Origin: a virus
Strand: one strand, 5' to 3'
Length of the DNA: 64,000 nt
Virus record (IMG/VR): IMGVR_UViG_3300007790_000207
Position 1 is the stretch's first letter, and each line of letters begins with the position of its first letter. A program made the translations under genes and the position numbers. The notes below the pieces were generated by a model. That model searched no databases and was not told the origin of the DNA. It saw only the letters and a program-made list of their open reading frames with translations. This document shows positions 7,710 to 53,816 of the stretch, in pieces.

Positions 7710-8240
7710 ATGGCGAACGAGCACTACAGCATCTTCAAGGCCTGTGCTCGGGTCGGCATGGACATCGGCGTGGCCGCGCGAGCGAAGAAGGAGTACTGCC
7801 CGTTCGGCCAGGTCTGGCACTCCGACGGCGGTGAGAGCCCGGCGATGCGCGTCTACGAGGACTCGAATCACGCCTACTGCTTCGCCTGCCCCAAGTACTA
7901 CACCCCCTCGCTCTTGATCGCCACCGCCGAGGACCTCAGCGAGGACGCCGCGGTCGACTCGATGCTCCTCGAACTGGGCTACATCGAGAGCGACACCGGC
8001 GCTCGCTGGGACGCGGCCATCAAGCCGCCCACGCTCAACAAGGCGGCGTTCAGCGAGGCCTTGCAGATCGCGGCCGCACGCATCATCACGCCTTGGTCCA
8101 TTCGGCAGTACGACCCTGAGGTCGTCGAGTGGATGAACAAGTGCCTCTCCCTCCTGGAGAAGGTCCACACCATCGAGCACGGAGAAGTCTGGCTCGACGT
8201 CACGAAGCGAGCCCTCACGGAGCGGTTCGGAAAGGAATGA
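7710..8240 (+). CDS. CHC2-type primase zinc-finger protein (no TOPRIM domain)
   Basis: CPF...H.D...PAMRVY...AYCFAC pattern. Confidence 0.75.
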   Translation: MANEHYSIFKACARVGMDIGVAARAKKEYCPFGQVWHSDGGESPAMRVYEDSNHAYCFACPKYYTPSLLIATAEDLSEDAAVDSMLLELGYIESDTGARWDAAIKPPTLNKAAFSEALQIAAARIITPWSIRQYDPEVVEWMNKCLSLLEKVHTIEHGEVWLDVTKRALTERFGKE

Positions 8241-8242
8241 CC

Positions 8243-8461
8243 ATGAACACCGCAGACATCCCCGCCCTGGAGGACTGGCTCACGGTCCCCGAGGTCGCCG
8301 AGACCCTGGAACTCTCGCGACAGCGGGCGCACCAGATCATCACGAACGGCACCATCGCGGGCGCGCGCACCATCGGGAAGAACGCGGTCATCGTCGTGCC
8401 GAAGAGCGCCGTCGAGAAGTACCGGCGACTCAACCCGAAAAAGGGCGCGGAAACCACTTGA
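8243..8461 (+). CDS. Excisionase-like helix-turn-helix DNA-binding protein
   Basis: WLTVPEVAETLELSRQRAHQIITNG, HTH_17/MerR-like signature. Confidence 0.8.
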   Translation: MNTADIPALEDWLTVPEVAETLELSRQRAHQIITNGTIAGARTIGKNAVIVVPKSAVEKYRRLNPKKGAETT

Positions 8462-26883: not shown

Positions 26884-26887
26884 ACCA

Positions 26888-26943
26888 CCCGGCCCGCTCA
26901 CCGACATCTCAGCGCAAGCGCATCGAGGCACCAGCGGGCCGGG
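26888..26943 (+). ncRNA. Solitary TIGR-like stem-loop guide unit 1
   Basis: 10-bp stem CCCGGCCCGC/GCGGGCCGGG; 36-nt loop tCA-ccgacatc-TCAGCgcaaGC-GCA-tcgaggca-CCA. Confidence 0.7.
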
Positions 26944-27008
26944 TATTGACCCTGAAGAAGAGAACGCCTAGACTGGCGTCAACAAGTTCACGCATCGGAA
27001 GGAACCCC

Positions 27009-29774: not shown

Positions 29775-29855
29775 GCTCCTCTGGTGGAATGGCAGACACG
29801 GCGCACTCAAAATGCGCTCCTGGAAGGGGTCCCGGTTCGAGTCCGGGGAGGAGCA
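29775..29855 (+). tRNA. tRNA-Leu(CAA)
   Basis: GCTCCTC/GAGGAGC acceptor stem, GCGCA-CTCAAAA-TGCGC anticodon arm, long variable arm, TTCGAGT T-loop. Confidence 0.9.
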
Positions 29856-29857
29856 CA

Positions 29858-29911
29858 AGACGGGCGCATGATACCCCCGAGCCGCGGCGCAAGAAGCGGG
29901 CTAGCCCGTCT
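29858..29911 (+). ncRNA. Solitary TIGR-like stem-loop guide unit 2
   Basis: Stem AGACGGGC/GCCCGTCT; 38-nt loop gCA-tgatacccc-CGAGCcgcgGC-GCA-agaagcggg-CTA. Confidence 0.65.
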
Positions 29912-29914
29912 GAC

Positions 29915-29943
29915 TTGACAAGGGTCGAGAGAGGCCCTACTCT
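29915..29943 (+). promoter_or_regulatory. Promoter for downstream tRNAs, with near-consensus operator
   Basis: TTGACA-17-TACTCT; TTGACAAGGGTCGA. Confidence 0.65.
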
Positions 29944-29971
29944 GAAGTTCTTCGGCTCCGGCTGAAGACCT

Positions 29972-30042
29972 TGACAGGTAGCCAAGAGGCAAGGCATCCG
30001 GCTGTTACCCGGCGAGCGGTGGTTCGATCCCACCCCTGTCAG
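29972..30042 (+). tRNA. tRNA-Asn(GTT)
   Basis: TGACAGG/CCTGTCA acceptor stem, CT-GTT-AC anticodon loop, GGTGG-TTCGATC-CCACC T arm. Confidence 0.8.
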
Positions 30043-30108
30043 CGCAATGTAGAGCGAGGCCCGGCGAGAACCGGAGGGCCACACAGGGTCGTGACCCACC
30101 ACGAACTT

Positions 30109-30181
30109 AGGTCCCTGGCGCAACTGGTAGCGCAACGGTCTCCAAAACCGTAGGTTGCAGGTTCGAATCCTGCGGGATCTG
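30109..30181 (+). tRNA. tRNA-Trp(CCA)
   Basis: AGGTCCC/GGGATCT acceptor stem, ACGGT-CTCCAAA-ACCGT, GCAGG-TTCGAAT-CCTGC. Confidence 0.9.
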
Positions 30182-30255
30182 CGGCGCGGCTCCGGCGCGC
30201 TGGCGCTTAGCGGTAGGAACCCGCCAAAGTCCCAAGTCCAGCAGACGGAGCACCT

Positions 30256-30341
30256 GGCAGATTACTTCAAGTGGTCAACGAGGGGTGGCTGTAAACCACC
30301 TGGCTTCGCCTTCGCAGGTTCGAATCCTGCATCTGCCGCCA
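30256..30341 (+). tRNA. tRNA-Tyr(GTA)
   Basis: GGCAGAT/ATCTGCC acceptor stem, GGTGG-CTGTAAA-CCACC, long variable arm, encoded CCA. Confidence 0.88.
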
Positions 30342-32047: not shown

Positions 32048-32194
32048 ATGAGCATCTACGACATCCCCGAGGAGCGCCGGGTCGACCCCGCTTCCTGCAC
32101 GCACTCCTCCTTCGTCCTGAAGTACGACGGCGGGAAGTGGCCGCACGTCTGTGAGGACTGCGACACCATCATCGGCTGGGGCTTCGTCGGATGA
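32048..32194 (+). CDS. Small Cys/His protein
   Basis: C.H...CEDC; ATGA coupling. Confidence 0.5.
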   Translation: MSIYDIPEERRVDPASCTHSSFVLKYDGGKWPHVCEDCDTIIGWGFVG

Positions 32195-32472
32195 CGAACC
32201 CGCCCCGCCGGTGCCAGATCACCGACTGCCCCAACCCCCACGTCGCCAAGGACTACTGCGCGCTCCACTACTCGCGAGCGCACCGCGGCGTCGACCCGAG
32301 CGGCCCCGTCCGTCCCTACGCGACGAAGCACGCCCCGACGTGCGACGAGGCGGGGTGCGACAAGCCGTACTACGCCAAGGACAAGTGCTCTGCGCACTAC
32401 ACCGCCATGCGGCGCGACGCCGCGCAGGCTTCCCCGCCGTCGACCACGACGATCCAGCCCTCGGGCGCATGA
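32191..32472 (+). CDS. Tandem zinc-finger protein (2x C-x4-C...C-x2-HY)
   Basis: CQITDC...YCALHY and CDEAGC...KCSAHY. Confidence 0.7.
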   Translation: MTNPPRRCQITDCPNPHVAKDYCALHYSRAHRGVDPSGPVRPYATKHAPTCDEAGCDKPYYAKDKCSAHYTAMRRDAAQASPPSTTTIQPSGA

Positions 32473-32500
32473 TGCCTACCACGGCGGGGAACTTTTTCTC

Positions 32501-32529
32501 TTGACGGCTGACAAGCAGAGAGGTAGCCT
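32501..32529 (+). promoter_or_regulatory. Promoter of the Tas-like operon (near-consensus operator, leaderless)
   Basis: TTGACGGCTGACAA; TAGCCT 32524-32529; ATG 32536. Confidence 0.7.
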
Positions 32530-32535
32530 CAGAGC

Positions 32536-32799
32536 ATGAAGACCATCCGCCAGCGGGTCAAGGAGGCCGTCCAGGAGCACCCTGACGCCTCCGCGCTCCA
32601 CCTCGCTCGCCGCTTGCGGGAAGAGGGTGGCCTGAGCGATGCAGACCTGCTCATGCTCCTCGACACTGCGATCACCGCCGAGCGTGAGAGCGCGAAGCCG
32701 AAGGTCACCGTCACTGTCAACCTCCCCGCGGACCGACCGCGCCGCGAGCCCCGCGCTCAGCGCATCGTCGACCGCGGCCCGTACCCCTGGCCTGCGTAG
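32536..32799 (+). CDS. Small helical protein, possibly HTH
   Basis: First gene of the operon carrying the Nop-domain gene. Confidence 0.6.
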   Translation: MKTIRQRVKEAVQEHPDASALHLARRLREEGGLSDADLLMLLDTAITAERESAKPKVTVTVNLPADRPRREPRAQRIVDRGPYPWPA

Positions 32800-32845
32800 A
32801 GTTACCACCAGCCGCCCGGCTCAAACAGACGACCAGCAGACCAGG
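32786..32845 (+). ncRNA. TIGR-like stem-loop guide unit 3, immediately upstream of the Nop-domain gene
   Basis: Stem CCTGGCCTGC/GCAGACCAGG (1 mismatch); 40-nt loop gTA-gagttacca-CCAGCcgcccgGC-TCA-aacagacga-CCA. Confidence 0.7.
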
Positions 32846-32867
32846 CCCCAACCCGAAGGAGAACCCT

Positions 32868-33653
32868 ATGAGGATCATCGACAGCCCCGTCCTCGCCATG
32901 ACCGCGAAGTCCCTCGACGACGTCGAGGACCTGCGGATCGCCGCCGAGAACCGGCTCCGAGCGCTCACCCGCGACGAGGCCGACAAGGACGGCGAGATCC
33001 GCGGACTCGGGCTCAGCCCCGAGCACCCGGACGTCAAGACCGCGACCGCCATCCTGGCGAACATCCAGGAGTTGGAGGTTCGGCAGACGAAGGCCCTGGA
33101 GTCGCAGATGAAGAGCCACCCGCTCTTCAATTGGGTCAAGGACTCGAAGGGCGTCGGCGCGAAGCAGGGCGCTCGCCTCCTCGCGGCTGTCGGCGACCCC
33201 TACATCGCCGAGCGGGTGAACAAGACGCCCGACGGCAAGATCATCAGCGTCGACGTCAGCCCGCGCACCCTCCGCGAGTTCCACTCGTACTGCGGCTACG
33301 GCATCGCCGACGACGGCCAGGCACGCCGCCGCAAGAAGGGCGAGCGCGCGAACTGGAACGCCGAGGCGAAGATGCGCGTCTACCTCATCGCGAACTCCAT
33401 CATCAAGACCAAGGGCGACCTTCGCGACGTCTACGACGCCGCGCGCGCCAAGTACGACCAGCAGGTCCACCTCACCGACTGCGTGCGCTGTGGGCCCTCT
33501 GGGAAGCCTGCGCTGGCCGGTTCCACGCTCTCGGCCGGGCACGCCCACGCTCGCGCCCTCCGCGCGGTCTCGAAGCGAGTCCTCTCGGACCTCTACTACG
33601 AGGCCAAGCGCATCCACGACGAGATGGACGCGACCGAGGCGGTGGCGGCATGA
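32868..33653 (+). CDS. IS110/Nop-domain RNA-binding protein without nuclease domain (TasA-like)
   Basis: DLRIAAENRL coiled coil, KGVGAKQGARLLAAVGDP (Transposase_20/Nop HhH), HSYCGYG...RRRKKGERANWNAEAK, HAHARALR; no N-terminal DEDD RuvC domain. Confidence 0.8.
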   Translation: MRIIDSPVLAMTAKSLDDVEDLRIAAENRLRALTRDEADKDGEIRGLGLSPEHPDVKTATAILANIQELEVRQTKALESQMKSHPLFNWVKDSKGVGAKQGARLLAAVGDPYIAERVNKTPDGKIISVDVSPRTLREFHSYCGYGIADDGQARRRKKGERANWNAEAKMRVYLIANSIIKTKGDLRDVYDAARAKYDQQVHLTDCVRCGPSGKPALAGSTLSAGHAHARALRAVSKRVLSDLYYEAKRIHDEMDATEAVAA

Positions 33654-33835
33654 GGGTCGAGATCCGCATCCAGGACGACGACCTGAACATCGAGGTCTCC
33701 GACGAGACTGAGGCGGTTCGAGACATGGCTCTGAGCCAGGTCCTCGCCGAGTGGTGGGACAACGGCACCCCGACCGAACTGATCGAGAAGACGGTGGCGC
33801 GCGCCATCGCCGCATACAAGGAGCAGAGCGCATGA
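33650..33835 (+). CDS. Hypothetical protein
   Basis: ATGA coupling to the Nop-domain gene. Confidence 0.6.
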   Translation: MRVEIRIQDDDLNIEVSDETEAVRDMALSQVLAEWWDNGTPTELIEKTVARAIAAYKEQSA

Positions 33836-34185
33836 GCGAGGTCATCATCAAGAAGCACCTCCGCTTCCCGATCCGCACGAAGGACCACCGGGAGCGCCAG
33901 AACTTCCTCGCGGCTGTGAAGGACGTCCTCGACGCCGGGGACGAGACCTTCAGCCGCAAGACGGTGGAGGTGCTCATGGGCGAGTTGACGCTCGCGCAGG
34001 AGTTCTACGACAAGGCGATGGCTCAGGACCGCTGGGTGCAGTTGCCGCCCGAGGAGACCCGTAGACTGGCGAAGTTCCTGGAGCGCCCCAACAGGTCCTT
34101 CGGGGGTCAGCCGCGCCTCTCTGTCAACGCCGTCGAAGGTGGCGGCCTCCTCATCCGAATCGCACCTTGGAGGTACGAGCAATGA
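33832..34185 (+). CDS. Hypothetical protein
   Basis: AAGGAG RBS, ATGA coupling. Confidence 0.6.
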   Translation: MSEVIIKKHLRFPIRTKDHRERQNFLAAVKDVLDAGDETFSRKTVEVLMGELTLAQEFYDKAMAQDRWVQLPPEETRRLAKFLERPNRSFGGQPRLSVNAVEGGGLLIRIAPWRYEQ

Positions 34186-37371: not shown

Positions 37372-37428
37372 CCTGGCCCGCGCACTCAACCTCCAGCGCA
37401 AGCGCATCGAGCGGAACAGCGGGCCAGG
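37372..37428 (+). ncRNA. Solitary TIGR-like stem-loop guide unit 4
   Basis: Stem CCTGGCCCGC/GCGGGCCAGG; 37-nt loop gCA-ctcaacct-CCAGCgcaaGC-GCA-tcgagcgga-ACA. Confidence 0.72.
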
Positions 37429-38308: not shown

Positions 38309-39478
38309 ATGAAGAACCGCCCCGCGACCCGCCTCTACAACTGGGCGTCCATCCTCGACGAGGAGACCCTCGCCCAGGCGAAGCGCACCTCCGAGATGCC
38401 CTTCATCCACCCGCACATGGCTCTCATGCCTGACGCGCACCTCGGCAAGGGCGCGACGGTCGGCTCGGCCATCCCGACGCTCGGAGCCATCATGCCCGCG
38501 GCCGTCGGCGTCGACATCGGATGCGGCATGATCGCCGTCCGGACGAACCTCACGCTCGCCGACCTCCCCGAGGACCGCAAGCCGGTCCGCGAGGCCATCG
38601 AGGCCGCCATCCCGACCTCGGCAGGCAAGTACAACGTCGACCTCACCGAGACGGCCAAGCGCCGCGTCGAGGACCTCGCGATCCTCTCGGCTCAGTACGA
38701 CTTCAACCCGGCCGCCTACGCACCCAACTGGGCTCTCCAGTTGGGGACGCTGGGCTCTGGCAACCACTTCATCGAGATCTCGCTCGACGAGGAGGACCGC
38801 GTCTGGCTCTTCCTCCACTCCGGCTCGCGCGGCATCGGCAACAAGATCGCCCAGCACCACATCAAGGTCGCGCAGGAGTACTGTGCGCGACACTGGATCA
38901 TGCTTCCGGACCTGGACCTCTCCTACCTCGTCGAGGGGACGCCGGAGTTCGACCGCTACATCGCCGAGTTGCAGTGGGCGCAGGAGTTCGCGCTCCTCAA
39001 CCGCGAGGAGATGATGGACCGCGTCGTCGCGGCCGTCGAGGCGTGGGGTCCCGGCAAGTTCGAGGAGGTGGAGCGCATCAACTGCCACCACAACTACACC
39101 GAGCGCGAGCGCCACGGCGGCAAGGACGTCTGGATGTCCCGCAAGGGTGCCATCGACGCGAGCAAGGGCGTCATGGGCCTCATCCCCGGCTCCATGGGGA
39201 CGCGCTCCTACGTCGTGGAGGGGCTCGGCAACGCGCTCGCGCTCAACACCGCGCCGCACGGCGCTGGCCGCGAGTACAGCCGCTCGGCCGCCCGCAAGAC
39301 CTTCACGCACGAGCAGTTGCGCGAGGCCATGCAGGGCATCGAGTACCGCGACACCGACGCCTTCATCGACGAGATCCCGCAGGCCTACAAGGACATCGAC
39401 GTCGTCATGGAGGACGCCTCCGACCTCGTCGAGATCCGCCACACGCTCCGCCAGATCGTCAACGTGAAGGGAGACTGA
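38309..39478 (+). CDS. rtcB: RtcB RNA-splicing ligase
   Basis: MPDAHLGKG, VGVDIGCG, LGTLGSGNHFIE, HSGSRG, CHHN, PHGAGR, DEIPQAYKDI. Confidence 0.95.
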   Translation: MKNRPATRLYNWASILDEETLAQAKRTSEMPFIHPHMALMPDAHLGKGATVGSAIPTLGAIMPAAVGVDIGCGMIAVRTNLTLADLPEDRKPVREAIEAAIPTSAGKYNVDLTETAKRRVEDLAILSAQYDFNPAAYAPNWALQLGTLGSGNHFIEISLDEEDRVWLFLHSGSRGIGNKIAQHHIKVAQEYCARHWIMLPDLDLSYLVEGTPEFDRYIAELQWAQEFALLNREEMMDRVVAAVEAWGPGKFEEVERINCHHNYTERERHGGKDVWMSRKGAIDASKGVMGLIPGSMGTRSYVVEGLGNALALNTAPHGAGREYSRSAARKTFTHEQLREAMQGIEYRDTDAFIDEIPQAYKDIDVVMEDASDLVEIRHTLRQIVNVKGD

Positions 39479-42631: not shown

Positions 42632-42699
42632 CGAAGCGGGTCCGCCACAAGAACACTCCGGCCGCAAGGCGCATTTCGGGGCTAGGCGGACCCGCTTCG
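42632..42699 (+). ncRNA. Solitary TIGR-like stem-loop guide unit 5
   Basis: 15-bp stem CGAAGCGGGTCCGCC/GGCGGACCCGCTTCG; 38-nt loop aCA-agaacact-CCGGCcgcaagGC-GCA-tttcgggg-CTA. Confidence 0.7.
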
Positions 42700-42709
42700 T
42701 ATTTTCCTC

Positions 42710-42738
42710 TTGACACTCGTCAAGGCATCGCATACGCT
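42710..42738 (+). promoter_or_regulatory. Promoter with TTGAC-N4-GTCAA operator
   Basis: TTGACACTCGTCAA; TACGCT 42733-42738. Confidence 0.8.
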
Positions 42739-53736: not shown

Positions 53737-53816
53737 GCTATCCTGAAGAACTTCATCGACCTCTCCTTGCATCTCCTGACCACAGACCTTGCACTTTCCT
53801 GATACAGTGAGGCCCT

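Follow-up and report, generated by a model that had tools for sequence, protein, structure and literature searches.

We analyzed a 64,000-nucleotide (nt) stretch of viral DNA, IMG/VR record IMGVR_UViG_3300007790_000207 (here called the window), which is part of a 113-kb contig. The window carries tasA, a gene for a nuclease-free Nop-domain protein of 261 amino acids (aa), together with 13 hairpin units, each enclosing two short variable segments (Table 1). It is likely, in our view, that gene and units together make up a TIGR-TasA system of the stem-loop class, belonging to a large phage of actinobacterial type. The preliminary description of this DNA had proposed a candidate RNA-guided system with a TasA-like effector; its observation is confirmed and its interpretation supported, but the kind of system is already published and is not a new class: nuclease-free TasA proteins with stem-loop guides and repressor activity have been described (Faure et al. 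2025, PMC12045711; Xu et al. 2026, bioRxiv 10.64898/2026.09.09.750476). Different here are box triplets that are altered and mostly missed by the published motif sets, a matching insertion in the protein, and guides that are dispersed over 27 kb.

Table 1. Coordinates of tasA, the guide units, neighboring genes, and related features (positions in the window unless another locus is named)
Feature	Position	Strand	Remarks
tasA, nuclease-free TIGR-associated Nop-domain protein, 261 aa	32868..33653	+	NCBIfam, PDB search, AlphaFold2 (AF2), Foldseek
Unit 1, solitary	26887..26944	+	Directly after stop codon, context TAGACC; 8-nt spacers; paralog of unit 5
Unit 2, solitary	29858..29911	+	2 nt 3' of tRNA-Leu(CAA), inside four-tRNA cluster
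Unit 3	32430..32491	+	5' half overlaps end of 93-aa zinc-finger open reading frame (ORF); then T-run and promoter-like TTGACG box
Unit 4	32786..32845	+	Between 87-aa ORF and tasA; 5' arm overlaps last codons and stop of 87-aa ORF
Unit 5, solitary	37372..37428	+	After TAGACC
Unit 6, solitary	42632..42699	+	After TAGACC; 15-bp stem; then T-run and TTGAC-N4-GTCAA box at 42710
Three-unit array	51181..51377	+	51181-51241, 51250-51305, 51312-51377; TTGAC-N4-GTCAA box follows at 51386
Four-unit array	53473..53736	+	53473-53531, 53539-53593, 53602-53662, 53670-53736; flanked by CTGAAGAACTT copies
Four-tRNA cluster (Leu-CAA, Asn, Trp, Tyr)	29775-30341		
93-aa zinc-finger ORF	32191-32472		Two Cys/His repeats; last 14 codons overlapped by unit 32430
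117-aa gene	33832..34185	+	3' of tasA; kept at 53-59% identity beside tasA in two relatives, the nearest of those having long contigs
Relatives' copies of 117-aa gene	L001 10768-11124; L085 1903-2256		
Phage RtcB RNA ligase	38309-39478		PHROG 1075, E = 1e-147; region shared with tRNAs and guide units
Tripl3t TasA locus	L003, MK524499, 6232-7274		Gene overlaps Cas4-family exonuclease gene; immunity repressor ~1.8 kb away

The tasA ORF is intact, with a ribosome-binding site (GAAGGAG) 8 nt 5' of its ATG, and every motif quoted from it in the preliminary description is present. Its product matches the NCBIfam equivalog NF052498, "TIGR-Tas system RNA-guided endonuclease" (9.2e-60; 202 bits against a cutoff of 100), with residues 9-246 aligned to profile positions 1-214 of 215. 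A phmmer search of PDB returned TIGR-TasR 9mty (E = 5e-10) and TasH (0.0055). An AF2 model built from 70 homologs (predicted local distance difference test score, 96.3) consists of nothing but a coiled coil and a Nop C-terminal domain. Its top Foldseek match was likewise TIGR-TasR 9mty (E = 6e-9; template modeling [TM] score, 0.64), followed by TasH complexes and the IS110-family recombinases ISCro4 and IS621, with archaeal Nop5 ranked far lower. The fold is thus Tas/Nop-like, as had been anticipated, and sequence and structure searches agree on it.

The absence of RuvC and HNH domains noted in that description was also borne out. Pfam returned no match at all for TasA, including PF01548 and PF02371; the Tas profile is covered end to end; and the N-terminal 70 residues align with the coiled coil of TasR and not with its RuvC domain. 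Since the model leaves no space for RuvC or HNH, the window protein is TasA, a nuclease-free protein with a Nop domain of the Tas type. To call it an endonuclease, as the NCBIfam product name does, would overstate it. The related C-terminal domain of IS110/IS621 accounts for older "transposase" labels, among them that of PHROG 4285 on the window protein. The protein lacks the makeup of an IS110 transposase, its fold match being limited to the C-terminal part of IS621. TasA homologs are single-copy, syntenic phage genes.

Within TasA, the coiled coil (residues 7-82) is followed by a helix-hairpin-helix, a clade-specific β-hairpin insertion (approximately residues 113-132) and a His/Cys cluster. 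The cluster residues H201, C205, C208, and H225 are invariant in 70/70 homologs and fall in an insertion that TasR lacks. Zinc binding by this CVRC-containing insertion had been proposed, and from the conservation a putative zinc site at these four residues can fairly be suggested. A predicted TasA homodimer scored below a control and so carries no weight either way.

Directly before tasA, the hairpin of unit 4 lies where it had been placed in the preliminary description, ending 22 nt before the start codon. Its arms of 10 bp, with one C·A mismatch, enclose a 40-nt loop composed of GTA, 9 nt, CCA, a GC hairpin, TCA, 9 nt, and CCA, and this parse, proposed from unit 4, also fits all other units. 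The same architecture had been counted 11 more times in the window. Its recurrence is real, but the total is 13 units, not 12. Their common grammar begins with a variable GC stem ending in C, followed by NCA, 8-10 nt, and CCA or CTA (rarely ACA, TCA, CGA, GAC, or CCG), and continues with a GC hairpin of 2-4 bp, NCA, 8-11 nt, CCA or CTA, and the returning stem. In the window units the NCA box is mostly GCA, ACA, or TCA. The outer stems of the 13 units are paired but mutually unrelated in sequence, and the spacers are 8-11 nt long. The string CCAGC-N6-GCTCA from the loop of unit 4 was considered as a shared motif and rejected: it is not repeated and occurs at chance level, and what is shared is the grammar.

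The number of units exceeds chance. Perfect stems of at least 11 bp around loops of 34-41 nt occur eight times in the window, compared to 0.3 times in dinucleotide shuffles (maximum, 2), and neighboring loop-size classes hold 0-1 such stems. When the loop grammar was searched in the window without a stem condition, 10 matches were found on the + strand and 1 on the − strand; 6 of the 10 are flanked by perfect stems of 8-12 bp and the sole − match by 2 bp. Grammar and stem therefore support each other. Compensatory changes are seen at all eight outer pairs (alignment A4), a result that is partly circular, since the units were chosen by their stems. An Rfam search recognized tRNAs only and none of the units.

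Homologs of TasA were found in metagenomes and actinobacterial prophages (469) and in 91 phage records, 83 of them from Mycobacterium phages, and we examined 83 viral or assembly loci and 27 genome loci around them. Nearly all loci carry hairpins of the published type, stem-CCA-N9-YG-N4-CCA-N9-YG-stem (here called canonical), which match the description and motif sets of Faure et al. 2025 (PMC12045711) and Xu et al. 2026 (bioRxiv 10.64898/2026.09.09.750476). Across the window and 84 loci (83 with tasA), 321 canonical units lie on the tasA strand versus 6 on the opposite strand, and a placement count over 334 units put 271 within 500 nt of tasA or inside the gene. The same pairing of gene and units occurs in prophages of Microbacterium, Streptomyces, Nesterenkonia, and Glutamicibacter. 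In Mycobacterium phage Tripl3t (Fromanvirus, cluster A), five canonical units fill a 339-nt gap before gene 73, whose relatives are variously annotated as hypothetical, transposase, or DNA-binding. No canonical unit (CCA-N9-YG) was found in the window.

The variant grammar of the window recurs only in loci L001 (TasA 68% identical to that of the window; 8 units), L115 (76%; 2 units), L087, L086, and L032 (8 units reading ACA-N9-CTC). In a maximum-likelihood tree of 76 TasA sequences, the loci with this grammar form one clade with 100/100 support. All members of the clade (10/10; alignment A1) have an insertion of ~13 residues after the helix-hairpin-helix, modeled as a β-hairpin, which is missing from canonical-type TasA and from TasR. 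In other stem-loop clades, too, protein insertions change with guide architecture (Xu et al. 2026, bioRxiv 10.64898/2026.09.09.750476). The co-variation of the insertion with guide architecture ties the units to the window TasA. The co-occurrence of gene and units across relatives, which the preliminary description had set as a check, is broad: ~100 loci carry both on the same strand, and the unit grammar changes with the TasA clade.

Spacer conservation could be followed in one orthologous unit. Locus L115 has two units before tasA, and the first is the ortholog of window unit 32430. It keeps 9/10 bases of spacer A and 8/9 of spacer B. Its stem arms, in contrast, have changed at ~40% of positions, and the changes compensate each other. 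Because the spacers were kept while the stem changed, the guide sequence is the conserved part, as expected for a stable target. The position of units relative to the gene varies within the clade: units adjoin tasA in L032, L086, and L087 and are scattered in the window and in L001, where they lie at −5.2 to +7.0 kb and two directly follow tRNA genes (tRNA-like 3' ends, ~7950-8300). This adjacency to tRNAs in both the window and L001 suggests that some units may be co-processed with tRNAs.

The box motifs alone leave the strand of the units open, because on the − strand they read UGG-N9-UGY. The + strand is favored by the co-orientation of canonical units with tasA, by the excess of G·U over A·C in the stems (106 to 33 in canonical units; 3 to 1 in variant units), by the tight gaps between + strand genes in which the units sit (one 22 nt before tasA, one 2 nt after a tRNA), and by tetraloops found on the + strand only. 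Inner hairpins of the variant clade are capped by GNRA, UNCG, or CUYG tetraloops in 20/34 cases on the + strand and 0/34 on the − strand (chance, ~2/34); in the window, the + strand count is 7/13. These tetraloops argue for an RNA over a DNA element. A − strand reading, with which the motifs by themselves are compatible, was rejected on tetraloops, gene context, and the orientation seen across the family.

In the window, the units span 27 kb and sit at the ends of operons and within the tRNA cluster. Two lie at most 440 nt upstream of tasA; the solitary units lie at −6.0, −3.0, +3.7, and +9.0 kb from it, and the arrays at +17.5 kb (three units, the middle one, 51250-51305, degenerate) and +19.8 kb (four units). 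Three of the solitary units (26887, 37372, and 42632) immediately follow a stop codon, in a TAGACC context. Unit 32786 is downstream of a TTGACG-17-TAGCCT site at 32501, which was read by eye from the sequence. Given this placement in gaps and at operon ends, the units are positioned for production from ordinary phage transcripts, and they may double as transcript-end structures.

A stronger form of that last point would make the units mainly transcript-end elements (terminators, 3' stabilizers, or processing signals), with TasA using at most the two units before its gene. Most units do lie right after a stop codon and right before a promoter-like TTGAC box, T-rich runs intervene after units 32430, 42632, and 51312, and the stems are long and GC-rich. 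A terminator, however, needs neither two variable 9-nt segments set in fixed triplets nor a capped inner hairpin. Units of this grammar are also present behind a tRNA and in the leader of tasA, places at which ending transcription would do harm. Moreover, the grammar follows the TasA clade, and a scan for consensus promoters and terminators over 32300-33000 found nothing. We therefore regard this explanation as very unlikely, while noting that the two roles are compatible.

The paralogous units 26887 and 37372 agree in their flanks, the core of the stem, the inner hairpin, and the initial five bases of spacer B but differ in spacer A, which hints that guides may arise by duplication and drift. 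The 11-mer CTGAAGAACTT occurs on both sides of the four-unit array (53462-53472 and 53741-53752) and again before the three-unit array (51161-51172), and an open frame of ~19 codons runs on after the second copy (53741-53752); the four-unit array appears as if inserted into the end of a gene. The heptamer AGAACTT is present 29 times on the + strand and 10 times on the − strand of the window.

We propose the following mechanism. The 13 units would be transcribed on the + strand within ordinary phage transcripts, at operon 3' ends, in the tRNA cluster, and in the tasA leader, and trimming by host RNases would yield hairpin RNAs of ~55-68 nt. Each hairpin RNA would be bound by two TasA subunits as a dimer. 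One Nop domain would read the two boxes where the outer stem begins, and the second Nop domain those at the foot of the capped inner hairpin. The two spacers of 8-10 nt would stay exposed, and each could pair with a different strand of a DNA target ~18 bp long. Since TasA is without a nuclease, the complex would bind and block transcription or replication and would not cut; host genes or competing mobile elements would be likely targets. In the published work, MbTasA showed guide-dependent repression of transcription and bound target DNA in electrophoretic mobility shift assays (bioRxiv 10.64898/2026.09.09.750476). By homology with MbTasA and with inactive TasR, guide-directed DNA binding without cleavage, blocking transcription or replication, is the most likely action of the window system.

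An RNA substrate was also considered. Archaeal box C/D small ribonucleoproteins (sRNPs; Nop5-fibrillarin-L7Ae) likewise combine a Nop domain with a symmetric RNA that carries two guides and ends in a closing stem (PMC12045711), and the phage encodes tRNAs and an RtcB RNA ligase, with one unit inside the tRNA cluster. A TasA-RNA complex acting in this way would target tRNA, rRNA, or mRNA, masking it or recruiting a modifier. Yet in published tests TasR was inactive when offered RNA, whereas DNA binding and repression of transcription were seen for TasA. The window units lack kink-turn boxes (RUGAUGA/CUGA), the fold similarity to the box C/D protein is weak (3id5; E = 0.86), and no methyltransferase partner was seen beside tasA, the scanned neighboring genes giving no match to fibrillarin or L7Ae. 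An RNA target is, in our judgment, very unlikely.

Self-targets were sought in the window by joining spacer A to the reverse complement of spacer B, or in the mirror arrangement, with a gap of 0-2 and at most 3 mismatches allowed, and nothing was found above control arrangements. Guides of the window and L001 likewise gave nothing above controls in about 1.5 Mb of related loci (up to 2 mismatches). A guide from one Streptomyces prophage, searched against the genome of its own host, gave no exact match, a single guide being too thin a sample to mean anything. Exact scans of IMG/VR with five guides (six patterns) returned 0-5 matches each, all in contigs of 34-57% GC and thus attributable to chance; these scans are a weak test, as they covered exact matches only and the host is not identified.

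The self-target result also bears on the possibility that the TasA ribonucleoprotein is an RNA-guided architectural factor, which would bend or pair phage DNA for recombination, replication, or partition. Faure et al. note a near-180-degree bend in the TasR complex and raise a role in helping integrases as well as links to ParB (PMC12045711); the gene of the homolog in cluster A mycobacteriophages overlaps a Cas4-family exonuclease gene, and the window is itself a replication and recombination region. However, neither in the window nor in the 7 kb on its left side did any spacer pair match better than controls, so that no self site is visible in the part of the genome that was read, and we consider this role unlikely.

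A stem-loop TIGR-TasA system remains our preferred account, and several findings weigh against it. None of the searches of the window, ~1.9 Mb of related loci, or IMG/VR yielded a target above controls or chance. The boxes differ from the published ones, RCA plus 8-10 nt plus CYA replacing CCA/CNA plus 9 nt plus YG: the published set (TIGRFinder) has a box C of CCA, CGA, CTA, or CAA 5' of each spacer and a box D of TG or CG 3' of it, and the window units have in common with it only the CA beside the spacer. As the motifs are not the published ones, the argument for recognition of the units by TasA is drawn from clade co-variation only. The sole imperfect stem in the window, that of unit 32786, has a C·A mismatch on the + strand that would be a G·U pair on the − strand, a minor point against the + strand reading. 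Several units stand at terminator-like positions with T-runs following. Finally, L085, a member of the variant clade with a TasA 65% identical to that of the window, has no unit in the 11.9 kb read of a partial contig (1-11910). Its tasA lies in a tightly packed gene block, and it is the sole case of the gene without units; these may be elsewhere on the phage or may have been lost from this copy.

The dispersal of the guides invites a broader, tentative reading, which we hold to be possible rather than probable. Guide genes of the variant clade may have moved out of an array and into the transcription map of the phage (operon 3' ends, tRNA cluster, and tasA leader), so that the dose of each guide would follow the early, middle, or late program and the outer stems would also act as transcript-end structures. 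The paralogous units and the ortholog with conserved spacers would fit new guides arising by duplication and drift under selection for a conserved target. Recognition would be by a private box code: the RCA/CYA boxes and the extra β-hairpin of TasA might together constitute a protein-RNA recognition system orthogonal to those of co-infecting actinophages with canonical CCA/YG units.

As to genomic surroundings, the window (66-68% GC) covers the part of a large phage genome that holds replication and accessory genes. It encodes two helicases (SNF2 and DnaB), DNA polymerase I, a recombinase resembling UvsX, RtcB, a sliding clamp, and four tRNAs; genes for tail and lysis functions are found immediately to its left. 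Genes are almost all on the + strand up to ~55.5 kb, and a − strand block extends over 55.7-59.7 kb. No near-identical DNA was found in the phage collection. The palindrome TTGAC-N4-GTCAA occurs in 15 perfect copies (8458-62359), several of them right after guide units (42710 and 51386), and looks like a promoter overlaid with a phage-regulator site. The product of the 117-aa gene downstream of tasA, which had no Pfam and no PHROG match, could be a partner of TasA. The 93-aa ORF upstream matches phage "HNH endonuclease" profiles (PHROG) in its N-terminal zinc-finger part only. It was considered as a split nuclease partner and rejected, as the match is confined to the zinc-finger part of the profile and an unrelated ORF takes its place in L115.

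TIGR-Tas systems are new, and their natural targets, the acquisition of guides, and the maturation of stem-loop guides are open questions in the field. Loci of the variant-box type are probably counted as "array-less" in current catalogs because their motifs fall outside the published patterns, and the window illustrates that guides need not adjoin the tasA gene. Because diverged phages keep the same spacers in one unit but not its stem, a stable target seems to exist, and it would be worth finding. For engineering, the insertion and the box change that co-vary with it could supply two naturally orthogonal codes between TasA and its guides. Cluster A mycobacteriophages carry the same family with canonical arrays, and the genetics of M. 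smegmatis could be used to test its function.

Among known systems, IS110/IS621 resembles the window system in its C-terminal RNA-binding domain (Foldseek E = 1e-3 to 3e-2), whereas the window TasA has no DEDD RuvC domain, and neither a bridge RNA with donor and target loops nor element ends accompany it. TIGR-TasR and TasH (9mty and 9w04) are closer, having in common with it the Nop fold (Foldseek E = 6e-9 to 1e-5; TM, ~0.65), the conserved GHxHxRAxR helix, and two-spacer guides. They differ in having RuvC or HNH nucleases, 36-nt guides derived from edge and loop repeats, and a Tyr/His processing loop, whereas the window system is nuclease-free and its guides are long-stemmed. The canonical actinophage TasA proteins (e.g., that of Tripl3t) belong to the same family (~41-56% identity) and have the His/Cys cluster and same-strand units, but their units have 30-nt loops (stem-CCA-N9-YG-N4-CCA-N9-YG-stem) and form one array at most ~500 nt upstream. 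Described stem-loop TIGR-TasA systems include PlTasA, encoded on a contig from Peromyscus gut (Faure et al. 2025, PMC12045711) and BlTasA and MbTasA (Xu et al. 2026, bioRxiv 10.64898/2026.09.09.750476). In contrast to these, the window has RCA/CYA boxes instead of CCA/CNA and YG, places its units mostly 3-20 kb from tasA, singly or in small arrays, at operon ends and beside a tRNA, and encodes a TasA with an extra β-hairpin after the helix-hairpin-helix and an invariant His/Cys cluster. Nevertheless, the likeness is extensive: a solo Nop-domain protein; a variable palindromic stem with two ~9-nt spacers and a short linker or stem; units on the tas strand, whether upstream, downstream, or in separate subarrays; and carriage by phages.

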